64,000 bases of DNA from a bacterium (GTDB lineage: Bacteria; Babelota; Babeliae; Babelales; UASB340): the NCBI GenBank assembly GCA_030629005.1, contig DAOVPV010000005.1, positions 462-64,461 of the forward strand. Direction: 5' to 3'. Within the stretch, counting starts at the first letter, position 1. Every line of letters begins with the position of its first letter. Made by a program: the position numbers and the translations under genes. The notes beneath the pieces are model-generated. The model was not told the DNA's origin and ran no database searches. It was given only the letters and a program-made list of their open reading frames with translations. Of this stretch, positions 5,650 through 26,511 are shown one piece after another.

Positions 5650-7068
5650 ATGAAAAAAATTAATCTATTTTTATTAACAATTATATTTTTTAATAATATT
5701 TTTTGTTCAAATGTTATTCCAGGAAGTGATCTTTACCCAAAAGAGATTGAATACGTAGAAAATAGAACTCCATTTGTTAACGCTGCTATAAAACTTATAG
5801 CAAATCAAAATTTAGAAACAGAAGAAGTCGAAGATATGGAAATAACAACTTTTCCAAGAATATCTCTATGTTTTAGTGGTGGTAGCTATAGATCTATGAT
5901 AGCAAGTCTTGGCTTTATGGCAGGGGCTGAACAAAATAATTTACTACATGCTGCAACATATATGTCCGCTCTTTCGGGCTCTTGCTGGTTATTAATACCA
6001 TTATTAAACATGAACTGTGAAACTGTTTTTTATAAAAGAATATTAGAAAAAAAAGTAAATAAAAATTTCTTTGATAAAGAAACTTTAAACATAGATAGTA
6101 TTAAAAGCTTTCTTTCAGAGACTGGTCAAAATAAATTAATTGACTTTTGGAGTGCATCTTTGGCTCATCATCTTTTAGGAGACATTGCACCTAATCTAAC
6201 CTTTGAAAAAATAAGAAAAAATCTAAAAACTTTAAACCAATATCCATTTCCAATATTTAATTGCGTTATTGCAAACTCAAAAGACCCTCAAGATGATTTA
6301 CCTTATAATTTTTTAGAAATAACACCATACACAACATATTCTAAAGTTCTTGATAGTACTATAAAAACCAAATACTTAGGCAACGTCTTTAAAAATGGAA
6401 ACCAAAAAACTTATAACCCAGAACTACCTGAAAGTTTTTTTATGGGATTTTTAGGAAGCCCATTTTGTTTATCTGGCGGAGATCTTTTAAATTTTTTATT
6501 ACTAGAGCTTGGTGAATTTTGGCACATAGATGACTACAGATATTTAAATTGGTTCGAACAAAAATTCTATAATTTAAAATTATATAAACACAGGATTTGT
6601 CCTGCAAAAATTCCTAATTACTCTTTAGGCTTAAAACAAAGCAAACTTAGACAAACAAAAAATCTAGAACTAGTTGATGGTGGATTTTGTTTTAATCTAC
6701 CAGCAGAACCATTATTCAGAAGAAATACCGATATTATAATTTTTTTTGATGCTTCTGTAGATGCAACAACACCAAATTATCCAGAACTACAACTTGTCGC
6801 CAATTATGCAAAAGAACATAATATTACATTTCCAAACATAAAAACACCATACCAAGAATCTGAAAACTTAAAAATATTTTTTGACCCTGAAAATCCAGAT
6901 AGTCCAATCATAATTTATTTTACTAATCCAATAACAAAGCCAACATTAAAACTTAGATATGATCCTAAAGAATTTAGGACTCTTTATGATGCAACAGAAC
7001 AATTGGTTTTAGAAAATACTCAAAACATTGCCAAAGCCATTAGTTGGAAAATTGCTCAATTAAATTAA
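5650..7068 (+). CDS. Secreted cytosolic-phospholipase-A2-type (PLA2_B / lysophospholipase catalytic domain) lipase
   Basis: 472 aa; N-terminal leader; 'CFSGGSYRS' (GGGxR-like oxyanion motif), 'ALSGSCW' (GxSGS nucleophile), 'LVDGGFCFNLP' (catalytic Asp region); GAAGGA RBS upstream. Confidence 0.75.
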   Translation: MKKINLFLLTIIFFNNIFCSNVIPGSDLYPKEIEYVENRTPFVNAAIKLIANQNLETEEVEDMEITTFPRISLCFSGGSYRSMIASLGFMAGAEQNNLLHAATYMSALSGSCWLLIPLLNMNCETVFYKRILEKKVNKNFFDKETLNIDSIKSFLSETGQNKLIDFWSASLAHHLLGDIAPNLTFEKIRKNLKTLNQYPFPIFNCVIANSKDPQDDLPYNFLEITPYTTYSKVLDSTIKTKYLGNVFKNGNQKTYNPELPESFFMGFLGSPFCLSGGDLLNFLLLELGEFWHIDDYRYLNWFEQKFYNLKLYKHRICPAKIPNYSLGLKQSKLRQTKNLELVDGGFCFNLPAEPLFRRNTDIIIFFDASVDATTPNYPELQLVANYAKEHNITFPNIKTPYQESENLKIFFDPENPDSPIIIYFTNPITKPTLKLRYDPKEFRTLYDATEQLVLENTQNIAKAISWKIAQLN

Positions 7069-7969: not shown

Positions 7970-8003
7970 AAAAAAGCCCTTAATTTTTAAGGGCTTTTTT
8001 TTT
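7970..8003. terminator. Bidirectional rho-independent terminator (A6, AGCCCTTAA, ttt, TTAAGGGCT, T9)
   Basis: 9-bp stem, 3-nt loop, flanking A and T runs; lies between convergent genes and contains the stop codon of the 1207-aa ORF. Confidence 0.75.
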
Positions 8004-11000
8004 CAGAACATATTTTTTTGCTTTTTCAACAGATTCCTTAACTTTAGCACCAAGCTCTCCTTGGACCTCTGGACTAAGCTCATTAAACTTCAAAATAATT
8101 TCTCGAGCAAGTCTCAATTTTTCGGCCTTCATCATGCTATCAACTCTTTCTTTGTAATTAATGTCATGTTTAATAAATAAATTCAAAAAATCATCTAATA
8201 TTAACAAGCTATCCAAGCCTTTAAAATTATCAGTCTCTAAAATAAGGTTATTGTCCCAACCACAAAGAGATTTAAACACAAGAAGCGAATCCTCCTTAAC
8301 CGACAAGCGAAAAAACAAATCTTCAAACTTATCCTTCAGATCAATATTAAAAACAACAGAGTCTTTTTCTTTTTTTAAAAAAACATTTGTTTCGGGATCT
8401 CCATTCATAAAAACAAGCTTATGCAACAGCAACCAGACAAGCTTGGAAATTGCATCGTACTCTATATCACTGATGATTCTTCTACGAAGCGTGATGATTC
8501 CTCTACGAAGCTTGTAGTTCTCAAAAAAATCAACAATCTCTCTCTCTATATAAAAAACAACTTCTTTTTTTTTGATGCCCAACTGATTCAATAAAAGGTC
8601 CTTCCGACATTCATCTCCCCTGTCACCCCATCCGCACCTTACTTCATCTTTTTCAAACTGTTCAATAGCCCTTTTTGCAGCCGCAGCAGCCTCTACCTTA
8701 TAATCCGAAACGCTAAAAAACTTGTGAAATAGGATTTTTAATAAATATTTATGATAAATCTTTTTAATATCACTTTCTTCGTCAAATCTATCCATTTCTT
8801 TTGTAAGCTGCAATAACTCGTTTTCTATAATTTTATTGTAAGCAGTTACATCTTCGGATTTAATCTTCTCTTTTGCATCATCAATAAAACGCTCTAACTT
8901 GGATACCGAGTATAATTTAACCTTATTAGGATCCTTCTCCAACATATCATTAATCCATGGCTCCATAACCAGTCCAAAAATAAACTTTTTGATATCAGCT
9001 TCAACTTTTTCAAAAACATCGCCAGATGAACTATCCACCCCTCCAAATTTATCCATTAAATACCAAAAAGATTTTGTATACTGATCATTTAAAAACACGG
9101 ACGGTTTTGTCAAAATTCGAGCCTGCACAAGATCAAACAATCGGTTCCTTTTTTCTAGATCTTGATAATCAAATATAGACATAACAGTAAACGCATAATG
9201 CTCGTACCACGGCTTATAATAGTTAAAAATAGAATTAAAATCGACATTTACAGGATTCTCTGAATATTGCTTTAAAAACTCACGTGAATCCAGCCAAGAA
9301 TCTTTATCTATAGTAGAAACTTGTTGAGAAAACCGACCACTGCGTGGTCTAAAATAATTGTCTAAATCTGCCGCCAAACTCCACGGCCCACCGGACTCGT
9401 ACTCATTATTGAACAATGTTTCAATAGAAGGCTTAACCTTTTGATATACAGCCTGAAATCCATACTCTTCATACCAATTCTCAAGCTCAACAGACCTTCC
9501 ACCTTTAACTAAATTAAGCCCCTCAATATCCCAAGGCTTTTTCTTTTCAAAAGCAGTCTTACGTTCTGTACGGCGGTCAATCCACCATGGAAGAGCGCCA
9601 TTTTTGTGAGCCGGAAGTCCATAGACCAAAGTTATTGCAACCAATTCATTTACTTTTTCTTTATTAATCATAAACTGCAATAAAACTTTTTTTGATAAAT
9701 CATCAGAATACTTATTCAAAACTTTAATTGTTTCTTCAAACAACCATGATTTATATTTCATGTCATCCGAGAGGCCATCCCAAGACACAGGCGTCCGAAG
9801 GACCCTCTTCTGCAGATCGGAAGGTAAATTTGTTATATCTTGTACGGGAATGGGAATACTTTCAGATATATAAAATTCGTTGTTAGATAAACCCTCTCGC
9901 GCATCTTCTGGAACTTTACCCGCACCAATTTTAATTAGCAAGTCAAAAATTGAATTCAAAATATAATAAACACTCGTTTTAGCATCACCACGAATAAGAT
10001 AATCTGCATAAGTACATTCATCCGCCTTTAAATAATGCATTCCACCAAATAATGACAAATTAAAAGACATCAAATTATTACAACCTATAACACTAAGATC
10101 CCTCTTGAACGGCGAAGTCTTATCAACATTTTTTAGATTGCAAAGCATCAATTCCGTTTCAAAACTTTCATTAATCATATTTTCATTATAAAAATCATAT
10201 ATAGATTTATGCTCATCAGAAAACTCTGTTCCTTCGCCTTTAGAAGCAACAAGTCTTGGAATAAATCCAATATCACCAAAAATATTTAACCAAGAATAAA
10301 GTTCTTTAGCAATAAGCATCATTATGTAATATTTAAGAGTCGTTCCATGATAAAAAGGGATAAAATTCTTAGAAAGCGTTTTTTCGTTCTTTACTACCTG
10401 TGTTACCAATGAAGTAAGACTTGCACCTTTAAGCTCATTGAGATTTTCACCAAAAACGTCCCTCCCATCTATAGGCTCCAGAGCCTTGAATCCGGGTATG
10501 TTTGGATCCAATCCATTGTAGAAAAGACCATACCCAAAGCGAGTACTTATGTATTCAAAAAACACCGCGTTGACCATACTCAAATTACTTCGAGACCCCA
10601 TAACACCAAAGGGAGAATCTTTCCATAACTCTTTTTTCTCAAACCGATCACGAAGCAATTCAGGCATTAATATTCCAGAACGTTCAGGAAGGTTCCACTT
10701 TTGTATAGTTTTTTTTAAACAAAACGCGTTCCGCTTCCGGGATACCTCTCTATCAAACTTCTCTCCGGCAGTTTCTCTATTTTTAAGCTTAGTAATAATA
10801 TCATTTATAAAATCTACAAACTCTTTAAATGTATCTCTTACCCTATCCGAAGGTAAAAAATACAAAACCCAAGCAGGTGCAGCGCCCCCCTGACCTTCAG
10901 TAGTCTCAACATTAAGAAACGGAGATACACGCCATTTTTCATTGTTAATTTTTTCATTCAACAACTTCCTAACAACATCAAAGTTAGACTCTTTACCATT

Positions 11001-11603
11001 CCTTACCGCATTTAAATAATTTTCTGTAACACTTACATCTTCATCACCCTCTTCTGAAGGTTCAGTTTTTATGTACCGTTTCAATTCTTTTAAAAGTTTC
11101 ATTCTCGTAAAAAGGCGGTCTCGATCGGACTTTGGACTACGCTCTCTTTCTCGTTCTAACCAAGCTTCAACTAAAATTTCCTCAGAGCCAGGTACAACAT
11201 CAGCTTTAACAGGCGTTGATTCTTCTTTAATTTCCTCTATAGCATTATTTAAAACTTTTACGCTCTTATAAACACCATCGGGTAGTTTTGTTTCACCAAC
11301 AGTAACATTTTCTGTAATAATCACAGAACAAGGAGGCATTTTAATATTACCAAGTGGTAATTTTTTTATATTAACATTTTGTAGTTTTAGAATCCGACCA
11401 CTTGCTTCAAAAAAAGCTTCTAAATTAAGGCTTTCTTGAAAGGGGGTCTTTTCAATTACTAGCCTTTTTTTAACTTCAGATGTTCCAGCAAAAGAAACAA
11501 ATGGTTCATCCTCAGCGCTCATCGTTTTACAGATAAAAATTAATAAGTAAATACTAGAAAATAATATTACTAAAAGCTTCTTTGAGCTATCAATTTTAAT
11601 CAT
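7980..11603 (-). CDS. Very large leader-bearing protein of unknown function
   Basis: 1207-aa uninterrupted ORF; N-terminal hydrophobic leader ('LLVILFSSIYLLIFICKTMSA'); AGGA RBS; no catalytic motif I can recognise. Confidence 0.8.
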   Translation of the reverse strand: MIKIDSSKKLLVILFSSIYLLIFICKTMSAEDEPFVSFAGTSEVKKRLVIEKTPFQESLNLEAFFEASGRILKLQNVNIKKLPLGNIKMPPCSVIITENVTVGETKLPDGVYKSVKVLNNAIEEIKEESTPVKADVVPGSEEILVEAWLERERERSPKSDRDRLFTRMKLLKELKRYIKTEPSEEGDEDVSVTENYLNAVRNGKESNFDVVRKLLNEKINNEKWRVSPFLNVETTEGQGGAAPAWVLYFLPSDRVRDTFKEFVDFINDIITKLKNRETAGEKFDREVSRKRNAFCLKKTIQKWNLPERSGILMPELLRDRFEKKELWKDSPFGVMGSRSNLSMVNAVFFEYISTRFGYGLFYNGLDPNIPGFKALEPIDGRDVFGENLNELKGASLTSLVTQVVKNEKTLSKNFIPFYHGTTLKYYIMMLIAKELYSWLNIFGDIGFIPRLVASKGEGTEFSDEHKSIYDFYNENMINESFETELMLCNLKNVDKTSPFKRDLSVIGCNNLMSFNLSLFGGMHYLKADECTYADYLIRGDAKTSVYYILNSIFDLLIKIGAGKVPEDAREGLSNNEFYISESIPIPVQDITNLPSDLQKRVLRTPVSWDGLSDDMKYKSWLFEETIKVLNKYSDDLSKKVLLQFMINKEKVNELVAITLVYGLPAHKNGALPWWIDRRTERKTAFEKKKPWDIEGLNLVKGGRSVELENWYEEYGFQAVYQKVKPSIETLFNNEYESGGPWSLAADLDNYFRPRSGRFSQQVSTIDKDSWLDSREFLKQYSENPVNVDFNSIFNYYKPWYEHYAFTVMSIFDYQDLEKRNRLFDLVQARILTKPSVFLNDQYTKSFWYLMDKFGGVDSSSGDVFEKVEADIKKFIFGLVMEPWINDMLEKDPNKVKLYSVSKLERFIDDAKEKIKSEDVTAYNKIIENELLQLTKEMDRFDEESDIKKIYHKYLLKILFHKFFSVSDYKVEAAAAAKRAIEQFEKDEVRCGWGDRGDECRKDLLLNQLGIKKKEVVFYIEREIVDFFENYKLRRGIITLRRRIISDIEYDAISKLVWLLLHKLVFMNGDPETNVFLKKEKDSVVFNIDLKDKFEDLFFRLSVKEDSLLVFKSLCGWDNNLILETDNFKGLDSLLILDDFLNLFIKHDINYKERVDSMMKAEKLRLAREIILKFNELSPEVQGELGAKVKESVEKAKKYVLKKKALKN

Positions 11604-12724: not shown

Positions 12725-13258
12725 ATGGCAAAATACTTCGTACTAATAGCATTTTATTTTTTAATTTTTTCAACATTAAACTTATTTGGACTTAGTCGCG
12801 CCAAATATCATCTAGAATGCAAAATAGAAGAACGTGAAAAATCTGGTGGATACGGCCATATACATTTAAAATATAAAAATTTTTCTGGAGAGAATTTGGC
12901 TTATATGGATTTAAACGACATAAGTTTTTATCAAGTTGATTTGCATAAAGCGAACCTAAGTAATGCTCATATATACTACTGCAATTTTAAAAAAGCTAAC
13001 TTAAATGAGGCAAATTTTTCTTATACTAAATTTTTCTTTCTTTATAACCTAGATCAAGTAAAAAGCGTAAAAGGTGCTGATTTTTATAAAGCACGCGGTC
13101 TTAGAAACAAACATAAAGATTTTTTAAGAAAACATGGTGCAATAAATGTTCCCGAAAATACAACCATTCAAGAAGATTGTATAAACAAAATGAAAGAATT
13201 ATTATTATTTGGCGGAATTGTCTACGGATTCTACAAGTTAGTAATAGCAACACATTAA
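12725..13258 (+). CDS. Pentapeptide-repeat protein with N-terminal leader and C-terminal TM anchor
   Basis: 177 aa; 'ENLAYMDLNDISFYQVDLHKANLSNAHIYYCNFKKANLNEANFSYTKF' fits A(D/N)LxX repeats. Confidence 0.7.
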   Translation: MAKYFVLIAFYFLIFSTLNLFGLSRAKYHLECKIEEREKSGGYGHIHLKYKNFSGENLAYMDLNDISFYQVDLHKANLSNAHIYYCNFKKANLNEANFSYTKFFFLYNLDQVKSVKGADFYKARGLRNKHKDFLRKHGAINVPENTTIQEDCINKMKELLLFGGIVYGFYKLVIATH

Positions 13259-13296: not shown

Positions 13297-13740
13297 TTAA
13301 TTATCAACTTCAATACTTAAATTCTCTTCATCCTTAATTAAAATTTTTGCTAATAAAACTTGATCCTCTTCACTTAGTTCATCCTTTAAAAGGATATCAT
13401 TAAGATAGATAGGAACACCATCAACGTAAATTGGTTCTTTTAATTTTTTCATTGTATATTTTTCATAAACATACAAAGCAACACGCATAAAAATCAATGT
13501 CACTAAAGATCCAACAAAGAAAAAGTTAACCCCCCTATCAAATATTTTACATGCCCTATTAAAAGAATCGTTCCTCATTTGCCATTTAAAAGCCCTAATA
13601 TCATCATCTGTTAAGCCTCTAGTAAAAGACTCTGTCCCACGAATTGACACTCTTCTCTGTTTTGAATAAGAGGCATTAATAACAAAAAAACATAATATAA
13701 ATGTACTTAATAAAAAACGTAAACTCTTTATAGAAACCAT
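13297..13740 (-). CDS. Small leader-bearing membrane protein; its leader resembles that of the upstream Hint protein
   Basis: 147 aa; 'MVSIKSLRFLLSTFILCFFVINAS' compared with 'MVSTKDLCFFILLSLLCVVNLDA' of ORF 15221-16663; one internal TM helix. Confidence 0.55.
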   Translation of the reverse strand: MVSIKSLRFLLSTFILCFFVINASYSKQRRVSIRGTESFTRGLTDDDIRAFKWQMRNDSFNRACKIFDRGVNFFFVGSLVTLIFMRVALYVYEKYTMKKLKEPIYVDGVPIYLNDILLKDELSEEDQVLLAKILIKDEENLSIEVDN

Positions 13741-13773
13741 AAATAAAACCTATAACATTAAAAAAACATTTCT

Positions 13774-14181
13774 CTAAATCAATTTTACAACTTTAGGATC
13801 ATCATCAGATATAACATCCAAAACAAATTCACTACAAATAAAGCAATAATGCGTTGGCTCAAGATTATCTGACCAACCATAGGATTGCGCACTAAGAAAT
13901 GATATATAATTTGAATCTAATACTTTAAAAAACGTCCAGTCACCGTAAAATCCTTTTCCATAACAATCGTGAAGATCAACAGCTAGCTTTTGTGCAAAGC
14001 TTTCATCTGTGGACTTATATGATAATACATTTGAATCAAATAAAATCTGGACTTTATTATCATTTTCCTTAGGACCAGATAAAATAATCTTTAAACCATC
14101 AAAATTATCTTCTATTGACTCAATGTAATACTTACCACCTAAATTCTTAATAGGTTCCCATTTAATAAATTTTTCTTTCAT
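13774..14181 (-). CDS. Small acidic cytoplasmic protein; candidate immunity protein for the upstream Hint-toxin
   Basis: 135 aa, no leader or TM; starts 17 nt downstream of the toxin-like gene on the same strand. Confidence 0.45.
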   Translation of the reverse strand: MKEKFIKWEPIKNLGGKYYIESIEDNFDGLKIILSGPKENDNKVQILFDSNVLSYKSTDESFAQKLAVDLHDCYGKGFYGDWTFFKVLDSNYISFLSAQSYGWSDNLEPTHYCFICSEFVLDVISDDDPKVVKLI

Positions 14182-14198
14182 ATTTTCAACTTTTAAAA

Positions 14199-15224
14199 TT
14201 AATCATTGTATCTAATTTTTAATCTTCTACCATTTTTCTTAATGATTTCTAGTGTAACTCTCTCATCATTACTTTTTGTTCTTACATCAACCTTCCGTCC
14301 ATCTGGAAGTTTACCAGCTTTACCATTAGGAATGGTATGCACATCTGTAACTCCAAGTTTATCAAAATCCTTTTGAGCTTGATCCCATCCTCCATTCTTT
14401 TCTTTTTGAGTTGTTTTTCCTTTAGTTTTATTACCAGGCGTTGCATCTTTTAAAACATCCTTAATTTTATTATCGGCTTCTTCCCTTTTCCTTATCCTTT
14501 CACGCTTTCTCCCCCGCCGTGCTTTTCTAAAACCACTACTAAAAGGAGTTTGTTTTATTATATCCTCTAACTCTTTTACAATTCCAGTTGAACCAGGAAA
14601 GATCAATTCGGTAATAACAACAGCTCCAACAACAGCACCCACCTTAAGTGCTTCTACAATAATTGGAGCCTCAACTAAGGCATACAAACAAACTGACATT
14701 GTCGCAGTAGCGGCAAAATTATGGACCAAAATAGGATCACCACGAGAATTTAAAATAAAAAAGATATTTGCACCATCAATAGAAATATCATATATATCAA
14801 CAGGCTCCGGTATTTCATAAATATAAACATCCGTTACATAAAATTCATCCAATCCTGGAGAATATAATCTATCACCAATTTTTAAGTCCTTAGCTTCAAC
14901 AAATCTTAAAACCTCTCGATTATATATTTTTTGCTCTAAGCCTACTTTTAAAAAACCAACATTTGTATCAATTCTAACAAGTTTTTTTGTTCTTTTTTTC
15001 TTTATCTTTTTTACAAGAGAAGCATCAACTTCTATTCTATTCTCATAAAAATTATAAATTAAAAGCCCATCTCCTTTTTCTAAATCTTTTACTTTTTTTA
15101 TATCAGGATAATCACTACAATCACTAGTTAAAACAATGGTATCAGCCATTAAGCCAAAAATATTTTTCGGTACAAAAAACAACAGTAATAATAAAATAAA
15201 TTTAAAATATCTTTTTAACATCAA
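14199..15224 (-). CDS. Sec-leader + Hint (intein-like, terminal HN) + hydrophobic segment + basic tract + small C-terminal payload; polymorphic-toxin-like protein B
   Basis: 341 aa; 'MADTIVLTSD...' aligns to the Hint N-terminal block; 'DIYDISIDGANIFFILNSRGDPILVHN' matches intein blocks F/G; then 'FAATATMSVCLYALVEAPIIVEALKVGAVVGAVVI', 'RKARRGRKRERIRKREE' and a ~75-aa tail. Confidence 0.7.
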   Translation of the reverse strand: MMLKRYFKFILLLLLFFVPKNIFGLMADTIVLTSDCSDYPDIKKVKDLEKGDGLLIYNFYENRIEVDASLVKKIKKKRTKKLVRIDTNVGFLKVGLEQKIYNREVLRFVEAKDLKIGDRLYSPGLDEFYVTDVYIYEIPEPVDIYDISIDGANIFFILNSRGDPILVHNFAATATMSVCLYALVEAPIIVEALKVGAVVGAVVITELIFPGSTGIVKELEDIIKQTPFSSGFRKARRGRKRERIRKREEADNKIKDVLKDATPGNKTKGKTTQKEKNGGWDQAQKDFDKLGVTDVHTIPNGKAGKLPDGRKVDVRTKSNDERVTLEIIKKNGRRLKIRYND

Positions 15225-16663
15225 AAATCTCCTTGAAATTCATATCTTGCAACGAAAAGAGGTACAACCGTACCATTTTCATCTCTAACTGGATTACCAT
15301 TTTTATCATGTAAAACATCAATAGCAATATCAGAAATAAGAACAGGATCTTTCCGAGAACTTTTTTTGGCCGAAAACTCTTCTTTTACATCTATACCAGA
15401 AAAATCAATATCTTCATTTTCTTTTAATTCAAAATATTCCACAACCTTCTCAGCTGACAATGAGATTATATTCATTGTTGTTGGTATAACAACTTTATAA
15501 ATAGCACAGCCTTCTCCTATACATCTAATAAATGAAGGAAGTATAAGTTGAAATTTTTCTTCTAAATCTAAATAATCCAAGCGATATTTAATAATATCTT
15601 TAGCCCATTTTAATTTCTCAGAATCCAAGCCCGTACATAGTACTGTTGGAATAAATTGCTTTAATTCATCTTTATTCATGTTACTAATACCCTCATAAAA
15701 AATTTTTGAATTGAACTCAAGGCCATCAGCGTCACCAAAAACCTTATTCAAATGGGACACTTGCCGAATCCCCCCTTCCATTAAACTCTTAAAATTATCC
15801 TCATTCAAAGAAACATGGAAACCTTTTTTCATTTGACCTCTCGATAAAATCTTTTTATACACCGTTTTTACAACAGGTCTTAAATAAATATAACCAGCAG
15901 CTGCTCCACCACCAATAATACCTCCAACAATAGCACCACTCAAAATAGCTTTAGCAGATATCTTTCCCCTTGTATGATTTACAACAGCTTTTATTCCTAC
16001 AATCGCGCCAACACCTGCGCAAATGCCAATAGTCCACAATATAGTAGATGTTGCTATAATGTTATGTGTTAATAAAGAATTCCCAGAAGAATCGACAACA
16101 AAAAAAGTATGTGGCCAAGTTAAAGAAAGATCATATGAATCTATCGATTCTTCTAGCTCAATAGTTTTTACCTTTATTACAGTAACAACATCATTATTTA
16201 AACCGAGAAGTTTATCTCCCTTTTTTAAATCCTTTGCCTTCACCCAAATAACACGTAATAATATTTCCAAAAACTCTCGATTTTTCTCCTTAACATGTTT
16301 TAATAATTTAGGTTTCAACTCTGCAAGAGCATTCCATCTATAAAATCTTTGTTTTTTTCCAATATATAAATAACCTCTTCTACCAGAGGAAGAAACTAAT
16401 TCCAATTTAGTAACTCTATTAACATAAGATGGCATTAATTTTTTTTGAACAACTCTTGCTCTATCTAAAACGCATTGTAAATTATTATCATTATAATTAT
16501 CATTTACAGATAAAAGACTATCTCCAAATTCTAAAGCCTCAACATTAGAAAATGTATAACTACCTGTTCTAACAAGCGTATCTGGCAATAAATTTGCATC
16601 TAAATTAACAACACAAAGAAGACTTAGTAAGATAAAAAAACATAAATCTTTTGTAGAAACCAT
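15221..16663 (-). CDS. Sec-leader + Hint (terminal HN) + Gly-rich TM helices + unrelated ~215-aa C-terminal domain; polymorphic-toxin-like protein A
   Basis: 480 aa; 'LLPDTLVRTGS', 'VKAKDLKKGDKLL' and 'DSYDLSLTWPHTFFVVDSSGNSLLTHN' parallel protein B; C-terminus shows no similarity to B; ATGA overlap with B. Confidence 0.7.
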   Translation of the reverse strand: MVSTKDLCFFILLSLLCVVNLDANLLPDTLVRTGSYTFSNVEALEFGDSLLSVNDNYNDNNLQCVLDRARVVQKKLMPSYVNRVTKLELVSSSGRRGYLYIGKKQRFYRWNALAELKPKLLKHVKEKNREFLEILLRVIWVKAKDLKKGDKLLGLNNDVVTVIKVKTIELEESIDSYDLSLTWPHTFFVVDSSGNSLLTHNIIATSTILWTIGICAGVGAIVGIKAVVNHTRGKISAKAILSGAIVGGIIGGGAAAGYIYLRPVVKTVYKKILSRGQMKKGFHVSLNEDNFKSLMEGGIRQVSHLNKVFGDADGLEFNSKIFYEGISNMNKDELKQFIPTVLCTGLDSEKLKWAKDIIKYRLDYLDLEEKFQLILPSFIRCIGEGCAIYKVVIPTTMNIISLSAEKVVEYFELKENEDIDFSGIDVKEEFSAKKSSRKDPVLISDIAIDVLHDKNGNPVRDENGTVVPLFVARYEFQGDF

Positions 16664-18789: not shown

Positions 18790-20950
<2,161 letters not shown>

Positions 20951-23879: not shown

Positions 23880-25274
23880 TCATAATTTAAAATTATGATT
23901 CAGCTTCACAAATTTTAACCAGAATTCAATTGATAAGAGTAACAAAATAGGTTCTATTGACAACCTTAATCTTGCAAATCCACAAGACAAAGAAATTATT
24001 ATAAATAAAAGAATAAAAAATATTAACTTAAAAAAAACTAACCTATAATCATGTGAATAGATAGAATTATAAGCAAAACCGAAAAAACCAATTATTAAAA
24101 AAATAAAAAAAATTATCTCAAAATAGATTATTGGAATAACTAATTTATTATTAACTTTTGGAAATAAAAATCTTTTAAATAAGCCTAAAAGACTGCTTTT
24201 ATTTTTATAATCTGGAAGCTTCCCGGAATCTAAAAATAAAATTTCAGAACTATACAAAGAAAAACATGTTTTTAAAACATTTCTTATACTAATTTTTAAC
24301 GCTACAAGTGGATATTTTAAAAAATAACCAAAAGCCAACCTCTCTCCAACAACACTAACTTCAGCATCGTTTAATTTTCTATTTTTTTTAATAGAAATAT
24401 TATTAATAGATTCTTCCCATTTTTTATTAACTTTGCTTAAAGCCACCATGTAAGAAATATTATCTTTTTGCATGCAAATTCTGGCTGCACCATGTTTTAT
24501 AAAATGTATCCCAGGCAAAGTTGAAAAAAATAAGCATCCTGTCAATAAATAGTTACGCAATAACCATGGCAAAACCGCAACAAACCATCCCAAAAATATA
24601 CATGCAATATTTTTAAACTTTATTAATAATTTTACTCGATCAAACTTGAATAGATATAATTTAGGATTATTAAAACCAAGCAAAATTAAAACTATAACTA
24701 GAAATATTAAATAATGACCTACAGGCCTAAACATACTAGCTAAGCCAAGGAATATTCCAGATATAAAAAGTTTTTTGAATGCCAGGAACGGAGACTTAAT
24801 CCGGGATCTAGTCCTTTTATAAAAATAAAAGATTAAAAATATTAAAAAAAATAATAAAAACAGACCATCCGTCATGGCAAGACCAGAAAAAACAACAAAC
24901 CCAACATCAAAACAAGACAATAGCGCTGCCAATTTTGCTAATAAAACATTCGCAGGAAATAACATTAAAGATAAATAAAAAATTAATATTGGAATAAAAC
25001 AAGATAAAATTATTTGTATAATTAACGAATTATTAAAATCATTAAAAATGTTTGTTGCCGCTAAAAATATAGAATACCCAGGCAAGCGGTAAAAATGCGA
25101 GCTACCATCTGCATTTGTTATTGTTTTGTTTTCTATTATTTGCTCAGCAACTTCCTTGTATACACGGCTATCAAATTGCCAAAGGACAAATTTATCTTTC
25201 ACAAAGAAACTAAAAAATAAAAATCTTATAACAAAAGCAAATATAAATATAAAAATAAAAAATTTTTTATTCAC
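23880..25274 (-). CDS. GT-C fold membrane glycosyltransferase (ArnT/PMT-like), copy 2
   Basis: 464 aa; 'FYRLPGYSIFLAA' and 'FRPVGHYLIFL' shared with copy 3; start overlaps the stop of the USP gene by 8 nt. Confidence 0.6.
   Translation of the reverse strand: MNKKFFIFIFIFAFVIRFLFFSFFVKDKFVLWQFDSRVYKEVAEQIIENKTITNADGSSHFYRLPGYSIFLAATNIFNDFNNSLIIQIILSCFIPILIFYLSLMLFPANVLLAKLAALLSCFDVGFVVFSGLAMTDGLFLLFFLIFLIFYFYKRTRSRIKSPFLAFKKLFISGIFLGLASMFRPVGHYLIFLVIVLILLGFNNPKLYLFKFDRVKLLIKFKNIACIFLGWFVAVLPWLLRNYLLTGCLFFSTLPGIHFIKHGAARICMQKDNISYMVALSKVNKKWEESINNISIKKNRKLNDAEVSVVGERLAFGYFLKYPLVALKISIRNVLKTCFSLYSSEILFLDSGKLPDYKNKSSLLGLFKRFLFPKVNNKLVIPIIYFEIIFFIFLIIGFFGFAYNSIYSHDYRLVFFKLIFFILLFIIISLSCGFARLRLSIEPILLLLSIEFWLKFVKLNHNFKL
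24794..24814. repeat. Half-copy of the hairpin element (ACTTAATCCGGGATCTAGTCC) inside GT-C copy 2
   Basis: Matches the outer end of the element at 27644-27677, at the orthologous codons ('TRSRIKS') of the paralogue. Confidence 0.7.
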
Positions 25275-26460
25275 TTAATGCTTTATTTAAACTACGTGTA
25301 TTCTTAAATATACTATTTATTATTTTTTTATTACCCACAACCACATTGTTCAAAATCACACAAGAACATGGTGCAATATTAAAGCCGTCGATTTTTATAT
25401 TACCTGTAATTTCTATATCTTCTAATTTTATAATGTTGTTATTATTTAAATTTGTATTTTCAAGACTTAAATTACCATTAATTTTTTTAGATTTCAGCTC
25501 AACCTTTTGAAACTTTTCGTCTTCTTTAAAATTTGGAGCATAAGTTTCATCAAAAAGATTAACATCTCCGGCTATTTCTTCTTTAAATTCAGGCAACTTT
25601 CTGTAAAAAACAACTACCGGAGTAAAGGATCCCTTATTTTTCAAATTATCACCTAATTTTTTTTCTTCAATTTTTTCGGTACAAATATCATTACAATACC
25701 ACCAGCTATCTAAGCCATCAGACCTTTCCTCTACCAAAGCAGTATAATGCCCAGAACTTGGAGTACGTCCATTATGATAAATTATACCAAAAAGCTCATA
25801 ATTTACGGGAGTTGCAACATCTGTCTGCTCTTCATCAATAGTAATATTTTCATTAATAATAATATTAGTTAAAATTTTAACATCAATTAGGCCTCTTTCT
25901 ATACACATAATAAAAATATTAGGAGTTTTTTTAAATTTCTTCGTAAACTGTTCATTTAATAAATCTTGAAACGATGAATCTTCCTTTATGGTATCAAATA
26001 TCAAAAGATTGAGCTGATCTCGCACATCTGGTCTTGTTAAATTAAAAGAATAAGATAAACAATCTAAATCTACAAAACAAGAATCTTTGCTTAGTATTTT
26101 TGATAAAAGCTTGGCCACAGGATGTTGAGTCCCCCCAAAACCTCCATTTTTATTCAAAGAAAATAAATTATTAAGGACACTTCCATCACACTCATTCTTA
26201 ATATCTAAATGACGACCCTGACTTGTATCTGCCAAATCATTTAAAATTTTACAAAGACATGTTTGTTCTTGATTTTTTTCAATTAATTTATCAAACAAAA
26301 GGTCTTTAAATGAAGCAAGGCATTGTAATGTTGAATTTAAAAAGCATGTGCTACCGTTATTTTGCAGTCCCCTTCTAGCAGATATGTTTTGAAAAAAAAA
26401 TGGAAATATTAAAATTAAAATTATTTTTGTAGTAAAGATTTTATTTATTTTTTTATTCAT
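25267..26460 (-). CDS. Leader-bearing ubiquitin-specific protease (USP/UCH, peptidase C19) homologue
   Basis: Cys box 'GLQNNGSTCFLNSTLQCL'; His box 'YELFGIIYHNGRTPSSGHYTALV' followed by 'WWYCNDICTEKI'; GGAG RBS before the ATG at 26460; hydrophobic leader 'IILILIFPFFFQNISA'. Confidence 0.8.
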   Translation of the reverse strand: MNKKINKIFTTKIILILIFPFFFQNISARRGLQNNGSTCFLNSTLQCLASFKDLLFDKLIEKNQEQTCLCKILNDLADTSQGRHLDIKNECDGSVLNNLFSLNKNGGFGGTQHPVAKLLSKILSKDSCFVDLDCLSYSFNLTRPDVRDQLNLLIFDTIKEDSSFQDLLNEQFTKKFKKTPNIFIMCIERGLIDVKILTNIIINENITIDEEQTDVATPVNYELFGIIYHNGRTPSSGHYTALVEERSDGLDSWWYCNDICTEKIEEKKLGDNLKNKGSFTPVVVFYRKLPEFKEEIAGDVNLFDETYAPNFKEDEKFQKVELKSKKINGNLSLENTNLNNNNIIKLEDIEITGNIKIDGFNIAPCSCVILNNVVVGNKKIINSIFKNTRSLNKALSE

Positions 26461-26511
26461 AAAAACTCCAATCATATAAACACTAAAAATTACATTTTCC
26501 GTATAACAAAA

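Follow-up and report, generated by a model that had tools for sequence, protein, structure and literature searches.

What purpose does a Hint domain serve when it directly follows a secretion leader and lacks the residues that start protein splicing? The question is raised by four consecutive open reading frames (ORFs), here called A, B, I and D, on the minus strand of a 64,000-nucleotide stretch of the UASB340 (Babelota) assembly GCA_030629005.1 (contig DAOVPV010000005.1, positions 462 to 64,461; hereafter the window), a DNA of low GC content (∼29%). The four ORFs lie at the positions first assigned to them (Table 1). We read them as a polymorphic toxin–immunity locus in which B would be a pro-toxin with a C-terminally cleaving Hint domain, I its immunity protein and A a partner, and we put the probability of this reading at about 0.7. 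The analysis is in silico and builds on fold, residue pattern, payload modularity and the co-variation of toxin and immunity genes; from these we infer leader cleavage, self-cleavage, topology, toxicity, target and the role of A.

As originally predicted, A and B are paralogous at their N-termini only: BLASTP aligned residues 25–208 of A with residues 25–176 of B (30% identity, E = 4e-14) and nothing beyond, and every motif that had been quoted from the two proteins was present. The Hint fold proposed for the shared part was recovered by two routes. The Pfam model PT-HINT (PF07591) scored 28.7 bits on A, above its gathering cutoff of 27.7, and 24.7 bits on B, just under it; our family profile matched A with E = 9e-66 and B with E = 4e-75. 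An AlphaFold2 model of B, made with 15 homologues, had a mean predicted local distance difference test (pLDDT) score of 79 and reached ∼80–95 over residues 23–170. A Foldseek search of this model against the PDB returned as its best match the bacterial intein-like (BIL) domain 2lwy of Clostridium thermocellum (TM-score 0.89, root-mean-square deviation 2.2 Å), followed by Tetrahymena BIL2 (6y75; E = 2e-10, TM-score 0.81) and then by more than 50 inteins. Judged by profile matches and predicted structure, the domain shared by A and B is a Hint fold.

A profile search of 1.84 billion representative proteins gave 9,928 matches at E ≤ 1e-3 and 1,179 at E ≤ 1e-10. From the best-scoring matches we took as the family set 113 short representatives (148–632 residues; 50%-identity clusters) whose Hint domain starts within the first 30 residues. 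Mean column identity across this short-Hint family was ∼10%; 68 of 90 members matched PT-HINT at E ≤ 1e-3, and in an alignment of 16 sequences the terminal His-Asn (HN) were the sole invariant Hint residues. The closest relatives with organism names were TM6 UASB340 and Candidatus Dependentiae genomes, and a narrower Hint alignment found only three TM6/Dependentiae loci in the genome collection and no locus in the JGI metagenomes. Some family members already carry the NCBI name 'polymorphic toxin-type HINT domain-containing protein [Candidatus Dependentiae bacterium]', and release by a HINT peptidase has been described for polymorphic toxins (Zhang, Iyer & Aravind 2011, PMC3113570; Zhang et al. 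2012, PMC3482391); a system of this kind was thus already known. In A and B the Hint begins at residue 24 and 25, respectively, straight after the leader, and no RHS, FilH, LXG, PT-VENN or PT-TG domain comes before it. The arrangement first noticed in these two proteins, with Hint as the first domain after the leader and a hydrophobic segment past the cut site, generalizes to the 113 representatives.

Position 1 and the residue after HN (+1) were as first read, Asn and Ile in A, Gly and Phe in B; in place of the block-B TxxH we found GxxQ. Among the 113 short members, position 1 was Gly in 71, Ala in 14, Ser in 12, Asn in seven and Thr in two, and never Cys; the block-B Thr position held Gly or Ser, and the block-B His position held Gln in 81 and His in 10. 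The C-terminal half of the active site has fared differently. The block-F acidic residue was kept in 83 members (Asp or Glu at position F:4, where Cys occurred in only four), block-F His was found in 77 and Asn in 22, B among these (99 with one or the other), and the penultimate His (H200) and terminal Asn (N201) were kept in 111 and 107. At +1 we counted Phe in 41, Ile in 18, Val, Met and Glu in eight each, Leu and Asn in seven each and Ala in six, besides others; Ser occurred once, Cys and Thr not at all. Of the internal Hint domains of long proteins from the same match list, 13 could be aligned at position 1, and 11 of these carried Cys1; the His of T..H was present in 28 of 30, and HN was kept. 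As these domains retain CF..GT, T..H and HN, the catalytic loss is specific to the N-terminal short family. Several long proteins (P0078, P0136 and P0152; P and L numbers are our labels for proteins and loci) have a canonical Cys1 Hint and, right after HN, a ubiquitin-like sequence (MQIFVKTLTGKTI...), the BIL-ubiquitin-like (BUBL) layout known from ciliates.

The His residues of blocks F and G drive Asn cyclization, and the cut at the C-terminus can take place uncoupled from the steps that precede it in splicing (PMC7765530). With the N-terminal catalytic residues missing and HN invariant, cleavage by Asn cyclization is the only reaction that is chemically plausible. The original prediction had come to the same view for A and B, and the loss of Cys1 and of block-B T..H together with the retention of HN extends it to the family: going by the residue pattern, splicing and N-terminal cleavage are excluded, which leaves a C-terminal cut, at N201|I202 in A and at N169|F170 in B, as the only plausible reaction. 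A true intein of classes 1–3 was rejected: Cys1 is absent, the +1 residue is Ile or Phe, and the 'N-extein' is a hydrophobic leader of 23–24 residues. Class 2 (Ala1 with Cys+1) was likewise rejected on Asn or Gly at position 1 and no Cys at +1, and class 3 (block-F Cys, WCT triad) on the composition of F:4 given above. A Hedgehog/Hog Hint was dismissed for want of Cys1, and its Hint module PF01079 matched just four of 90 members, weakly.

The leaders of A and B each combine a basic n-region with a hydrophobic core of 13–15 residues (Kyte–Doolittle hydropathy, KD, ∼2.1–2.2) and end in L-D-A|N and I-F-G|L, respectively. In the family alignment the residue preceding position 1 is Ser, Ala or Pro and position 1 is mostly Gly; these residues point to a signal-peptidase-I site, and cleavage is likely to fall at or next to Hint position 1. 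A cut there would make the Hint domain the mature N-terminus, so that a nucleophile at position 1 would be pointless.

What follows HN is hydrophobic in most of the family: the hydrophobic region has a median start offset of 1 after HN and a median span of 35 residues, and 78 of the 99 members with at least 60 residues past HN have a 19-residue window of KD ≥ 1.5 within 70 residues of HN. The model placed helices at residues 173–184 and 186–208 of B, with low confidence, and the two-helix layout of A was found in at least 14 A-type representatives. A subset of B-type proteins (e.g. P0010, P0026, P0029, P0038, P0107 and P0153) shows the motif F-A-(I/L)-x-(I/L)-P-(I/V)-L-T-W-T-F-G-G right after HN. 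A loose version occurs in 13 of 90 members, and the motif points to a particular structure at the scissile bond and not just any transmembrane (TM) helix. A PADLOC 'homing endonuclease' match on the linker of B (E = 0.0035) was discounted as marginal and as lying in a low-complexity basic region.

The C-terminus of B proved to be modular. P0007 and P0009, the nearest full-length relatives of B, match it over leader, Hint, hydrophobic segment and linker at 48–53% identity and then carry a DUF4258 payload instead; the swap point thus lies downstream of the Arg/Lys (R/K)-rich linker, and the hydrophobic segment and the linker belong to the constant delivery part. The B payload itself recurs at the C-terminus of P0015, a protein with a rearrangement hotspot (RHS)-associated core (TIGR03696, 80 bits), on P0016 and P0019 (both with YD/RHS-type ends), and on P0017 (small and leader-bearing), P0018 (with an internal Hint), P0020 and a 176-residue ORF, with D286, F287, G301, R315, S318, T324, K336, R338 and Y339 invariant. 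Other payloads in the family were colicin-E3-type Cytotoxic (six), Ntox37 (four), Ntox21 (three), DUF4258 (two) and Ntox35 (one). By these comparisons the C-terminus of B is a genuine swappable polymorphic-toxin payload, with toxicity predicted. Variable payloads had been proposed for both A and B; this holds for B and fails for A, whose tail is conserved. Modelled alone, the payload gave a pLDDT of 90.3 and a beta-alpha-beta5 topology. Foldseek found it no significant neighbour in the PDB (best E = 0.09, generic beta-alpha-beta modules of extradiol dioxygenases), nor any support for the BECR/RelE-like RNase fold that we had expected. By analogy with the sister payloads, nucleic acid would be our guess for its target.

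The 135-residue ORF behind B had been proposed as an immunity gene, and the comparison of loci strengthened this proposal. Protein I is leaderless and free of hydrophobic segments, and its isoelectric point (pI) of 4.64 contrasts with that of the payload (4.6 vs ∼10). An I-family gene lay directly downstream of the B-type payload in 17 of 17 cases, on at least four scaffold types and in loci of 27–56% GC. Thus, I homologues follow B-type payloads in L010 and L011, the RHS protein P0015 is followed by one I-family gene (E = 6e-39) and P0017 by two (∼1e-13), and ahead of the I-family protein P0025 stands a bare payload ORF (2e-37). In eight further metagenome loci (33–56% GC), an I-family ORF starts within a few bases of each of the nine payload ORFs. 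L007 has three I paralogues after one toxin and two more distant ones after a variant toxin. In contrast, DUF4258 payloads are followed by another small protein, whose L003 and L006 versions are homologous (E = 9e-18) and which bears no relation to I. Searches of Pfam, a PDB profile, NCBIfam and PADLOC gave no match for the I family. Adjacency to the payload and replacement along with it make protein I the predicted cognate immunity protein of B.

Orphan immunity genes are common in polymorphic toxin loci. In L003, a 163-residue ORF (9692–10183) after the DUF4258-type immunity gene resembles, by eye only, two ORFs of 170 and 174 residues in L013 (11308–11832 and 11829–12341) that follow a different B-type toxin; if this likeness is real, it would be such an orphan.

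Gene A is tied to B by position. The two do not share the ATGA overlap first reported: the junction reads GAT TTT TGA TG, a 1-nt TGATG overlap (TTGA if the TTG start is used), with an AAGGAGA Shine–Dalgarno sequence 7 nt upstream. B has 341 residues from the TTG and 340 from the ATG at 15221, the start chosen by gene callers. L003, a related genome, keeps the same 1-nt overlap. The overlap of stop and start with a ribosome-binding site upstream indicates that A and B are translationally coupled. A promoter scan was at chance level (22 found vs 21 expected), and no operon signal was taken from it; neither Rfam nor a tRNA search found an RNA gene in the window. An A-type gene stands directly upstream of the B-type gene in all five loci that have one (the window, L003 and L006, and also L007 and L013, where a C-type gene, described below, intervenes). 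B-type genes occur without A in L010, L011, L012 and L022, and A is therefore not universally required.

The orthologues of A are P0003, P0004, P0005 and a 434-residue protein of L006. Distant A-type proteins share, past a variable spacer, two Gly-zipper helices, (R)ENEDIDFSxID and a terminal DxNGxPxRDxNGxxV; the tail of A (residues 258–480) had no Pfam or PDB sequence match. A further class, C-type proteins, derives from the A-type: a leader and a degenerate Hint without block A and terminal HN are followed by a hydrophobic region and by the same terminal motif as in A-type proteins, D.(N/D)G..IK(D/N)..GK. Their genes (L003 10262–11302; L007 4998–5990 and 8503–9555; L013 9177–10241) are placed between A-type and B-type genes, and none was found in the window. 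L007 11493–12212 looks like a C/A chimera with HN. The gene after an A-type gene was always C-type or B-type, never a small ORF, and no immunity-like ORF followed A in the A-type loci examined. By its conserved tail A is a partner class and not a swapped-payload cassette; that it is a membrane-active accessory or helper for B is weakly suggested.

Alternatively, A and B could be two independent toxins, A being a Gly-zipper pore-former freed by its own Hint with D as its immunity protein, and B and I forming a second pair. A does have a leader–Hint–HN head with an intact block-F His and then two Gly-zipper helices. Pore-forming toxins typically have membrane proteins as their immunity partners, and D is a small membrane protein (TM helix at residues 73–91) at the cluster end, where small membrane ORFs are also found in L006 and L013. 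We nevertheless consider this reading unlikely: the A-type tails are conserved rather than polymorphic, no small ORF comes directly after A, no D homologue was detected among the small ORFs of related loci, and the C-type relatives, which keep the A-type tail without HN, fit a structural or helper role better than that of a toxin. D had also been said to reuse a similar leader. Its resemblance to that of A is slight: MVS(T/I)K(D/S)L is common to both proteins, and the D start is the best match to the first 36 nt of A among 48 ORF starts (25 of 36 positions, vs 22 for the runner-up).

A second alternative concerns the target, which could be the eukaryotic host (or its organelles) of these intracellular Dependentiae, with I only protecting the producer. 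The nearest relatives are TM6/Dependentiae genomes, the R/K-rich linker may resemble a nuclear-localization signal, and genes of eukaryote-like effectors lie in the neighbourhood: a PLA2_B (eukaryote-type phospholipase B) gene at 5650–7068 (plus strand) and a UCH-family ubiquitin hydrolase gene at ∼25267–26475 (minus strand; 205–1398 in L001, the counterpart of the window, a 110-kb metagenome-assembled scaffold, ENA ERZ23498683). The PLA2_B gene recurs within a few genes of the Hint-toxin cluster in L003 (11477–13357) and on the JGI contig of P0011 (566–2227), and the recurrent neighbours may form a shared effector island. We hold an exclusive host target to be doubtful, because the same payload–immunity pair sits on RHS and other scaffolds in contigs of 33–56% GC, as in inter-bacterial polymorphic toxins, and because the sister payloads colicin-E3-type Cytotoxic and Ntox21 are classic anti-bacterial RNases. 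Host and bacterial targets are not mutually exclusive.

Other genes of the neighbourhood deserve brief mention. Between the toxin cluster and the PLA2_B gene lies a gene for a 1207-residue protein with an N-terminal leader (7980–11603, minus strand), for which Pfam gave no match (best E = 0.21). A gene at 12725–13258 (plus strand) encodes a pentapeptide-repeat protein that has a leader and, at its C-terminus, a hydrophobic helix; this gene and the UCH gene are effector-like and typical of host-associated bacteria. Ten consecutive A stand at 19722–19731 of the window against nine in L001, which splits the GDP-mannose 4,6-dehydratase gene (18790–19885) into ORFs of 62 and 322 residues, whereas L001 encodes one protein of 364 residues; most likely the two are versions of one contig that differ in how this homopolymer was assembled.

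For the pro-toxin reading of B that we prefer, the steps would be as follows. The Hint of B, having lost Cys1 and the block-B Thr and His and kept the block-F acidic residue, a block-F His/Asn, the penultimate His and the terminal Asn, would become the mature N-terminus after Sec export and a signal-peptidase cut at or beside its position 1. Asn169 would then cyclize and the N169|F170 bond would be cut, freeing a fragment made up of the hydrophobic segment, the R/K-rich linker and a basic toxin domain of ∼90 residues. This fragment would act on a target cell, and protein I would bind and neutralize the toxin in the producer's cytoplasm. A, co-translated with B, would be a membrane-active helper and not an exchangeable toxin, a role only weakly indicated.

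Several observations weigh against this scheme. In canonical inteins the block-B His helps to couple the reaction steps; across the short-Hint family it is mostly replaced by Gln, and B-type proteins carry Asn where the block-F His is expected, so that cleavage could be slow or absent. Pro directly precedes position 1 in 28 of the 113 members, and the leader site was itself read from the alignment. The 25 residues past the hydrophobic region are positively charged overall in most members, with a net charge of +3 or more in 40 of 83 and of −3 or less in four; under the positive-inside rule, such a positive flank may mean that the payload stays in the cytoplasm of the producer and is not exported. 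The topology in the producer could accordingly be Hint out and payload in; alternatively, the hydrophobic–polybasic unit would enter a target membrane from outside. The payload has no relative of known activity among Pfam (searched with 14 payload sequences), NCBIfam, a PDB sequence profile and PDB folds. A as a helper is suggested by synteny. No route across the outer membrane was identified; in L007 a secretin gene (GspD/PilQ-type, 761–2410) lies just upstream of the largest Hint-toxin array, with six Hint-type and five I-family genes, and is a possible exit route, suggestive only.

That the Hint is catalytically dead, a structural, adhesion or secretion-recognition head on a protein that acts whole or whose toxin another protease releases, is quite improbable: Cys1 and block-B T..H are indeed lost, the B-type block-F His has become Asn, and a protease specific for dibasic sites could cut in the R/K-rich linker (…RKARRGRKRERIRKRE…), but unless HN has a catalytic role it is hard to see why it should be the only invariant pair (His in 111 and Asn in 107 of 113) in so divergent a family. 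The acidic residue and His/Asn of block F are kept as well, and for BIL domains and mutant inteins it is established that the C-terminal cut can occur uncoupled (PMC7765530).

Table 1. Features of the A–B–I–D locus (window coordinates; aa, amino acid residues; KD, Kyte–Doolittle hydropathy).
Feature	Coordinates	Strand	Description
Gene A	15221..16663	-	480 aa; Cys-less Hint after a leader, then two Gly-zipper helices and conserved motifs at the C-terminus
A leader	16595..16663	-	aa 1-23, MVSTKDLCFFILLSLLCVVNLDA; predicted Sec signal ending L-D-A before Hint position 1; KD 2.14
A Hint domain	16061..16594	-	aa 24-201, from N24 (position 1) to H200-N201; block-F His kept (PHTFF), block B GKKQRF
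A hydrophobic Gly-zipper helices	15893..16048	-	aa 206-224 and 239-257, KD 1.90/1.65; flank basic loop NHTRGKISAKA
A-type motif ENEDIDFSGID	15389..15421	-	aa 415-425; conserved in P0005, P0043, P0051, P0056, P0092 and others
A-/C-type terminal motif HDKNGNPVRDENGTVVPLFVARYE	15239..15310	-	aa 452-475; common to P0003, P0032, P0054, P0092 and C-type proteins
A/B junction	15219..15234	-	Shine-Dalgarno AAGGAGA 15228-15234; A stop TGA 15221-15223; B ATG 15219-15221
Gene B	14199..15224	-	predicted pro-toxin; Cys-less Hint after a leader, then hydrophobic segment, R/K-rich linker and payload
B leader	15153..15224	-	aa 1-24, ...FFVPKNIFG; KD 2.18; by alignment
B Hint domain	14718..15152	-	aa 25-169, ends H168-N169; model pLDDT ∼80-95
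B hydrophobic segment	14577..14717	-	aa 170-216, from F170 = +1 after HN; KD up to 2.10
B R/K-rich linker	14466..14576	-	aa 217-253, ...TPFSSGFRKARRGRKRERIRKRE...; constant region common to P0007, P0008, P0009
B payload	14202..14465	-	aa 254-341; putative toxin domain of undescribed family; pI ∼9.95 (aa 245-341)
Gene I	13774..14181	-	135 aa; predicted cognate immunity protein, acidic, leaderless
Gene D	13297..13740	-	147 aa; leader, one TM helix, acidic tail; system membership uncertain

PT-HINT polymorphic toxins are the nearest known counterpart. They, too, have the Hint N-terminal to an exchangeable toxin with the immunity gene directly downstream, and the B payload also occurs on RHS scaffolds like theirs; Sec and type II secretion are one route of export for HINT-containing toxins (PMC3113570; PMC3482391). 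In those proteins, however, trafficking or pre-toxin domains come first (PMC3113570), whereas in the proteins described here the leader runs straight into the Hint, which is the only constant domain. Moreover, Cys1 and T..H are lost, a hydrophobic segment and an R/K-rich linker lie between cut site and toxin, and partner genes of the A-type and C-type accompany those of the toxins.

In its chemistry the family is closer to A-type BIL domains, which cut at their C-terminus via Asn without obligatory ligation and occur in bacterial proteins that are secreted and hypervariable (Amitai 2003; Dassa 2004; both as summarized in PMC7765530). They share the C-terminal His-Asn and a non-nucleophilic +1 residue and were the best structural matches to the Hint of B, but have an N-terminal Cys and a block-B T..H, in place of which we found Gly, Ala, Ser or Asn at position 1 and G..Q in block B. 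Internal BIL-type Hints can also cleave or splice at their N-terminus, where the present family has as 'N-extein' only a signal peptide. Likewise, Cys1Ala C-terminally cleaving mini-inteins (IMPACT-style tags) lack an N-terminal nucleophile and free a C-terminal fusion by uncoupled Asn cyclization, a reaction tunable by pH and temperature in the engineered proteins (PMC7765530). Those are laboratory mutants of true inteins; the domains described here would be a natural and widespread equivalent, kin to them only via the Hint superfamily.

In overall build the locus also recalls small Sec-dependent polymorphic toxins such as MafB of Neisseria, reportedly a short pro-toxin whose signal peptide leads into a constant domain at the N-terminus and whose toxin, at the C-terminus, varies; immunity genes and orphan cassettes come next. 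The constant part is reportedly DUF1020/MafB-N and not a Hint, and MafB is not known to have an obligatory hydrophobic segment before the toxin. A literature search found no paper joining 'Dependentiae' and 'polymorphic toxin'.

Polymorphic toxins and PT-HINT release domains are well known, and the category is not new. What the locus adds is, first, a predicted toxin–immunity pair that is widely distributed and has no Pfam, PDB-sequence or PDB-fold match and, second, the conserved A-type and C-type partner genes. By its residue pattern the short family would be a natural Hint capable of C-terminal cleavage only, and thus a clean system for uncoupled Asn cyclization. The fragment it would release is hydrophobic from +1 onwards, which offers an idea of how small secreted toxins may cross membranes, together with the topological puzzle set by the positive flank. 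On a more speculative reading, which we regard as unlikely as a whole, the Cys-less Hint would be a natural, single-use and self-removing pro-domain that keeps the membrane-seeking segment soluble after Sec export until a trigger (pH, membrane contact or a partner) sets off Asn cyclization exactly at the first hydrophobic residue, unmasking a hydrophobic–polybasic translocation module that would take the toxin through a target membrane and for which the A- and C-type Gly-zipper proteins would be entry-pore co-factors. If true, this would be a three-part toxin delivery device without a dedicated secretion system in an obligate intracellular lineage. For the Dependentiae/TM6 themselves, the loci document arrays of polymorphic toxins.

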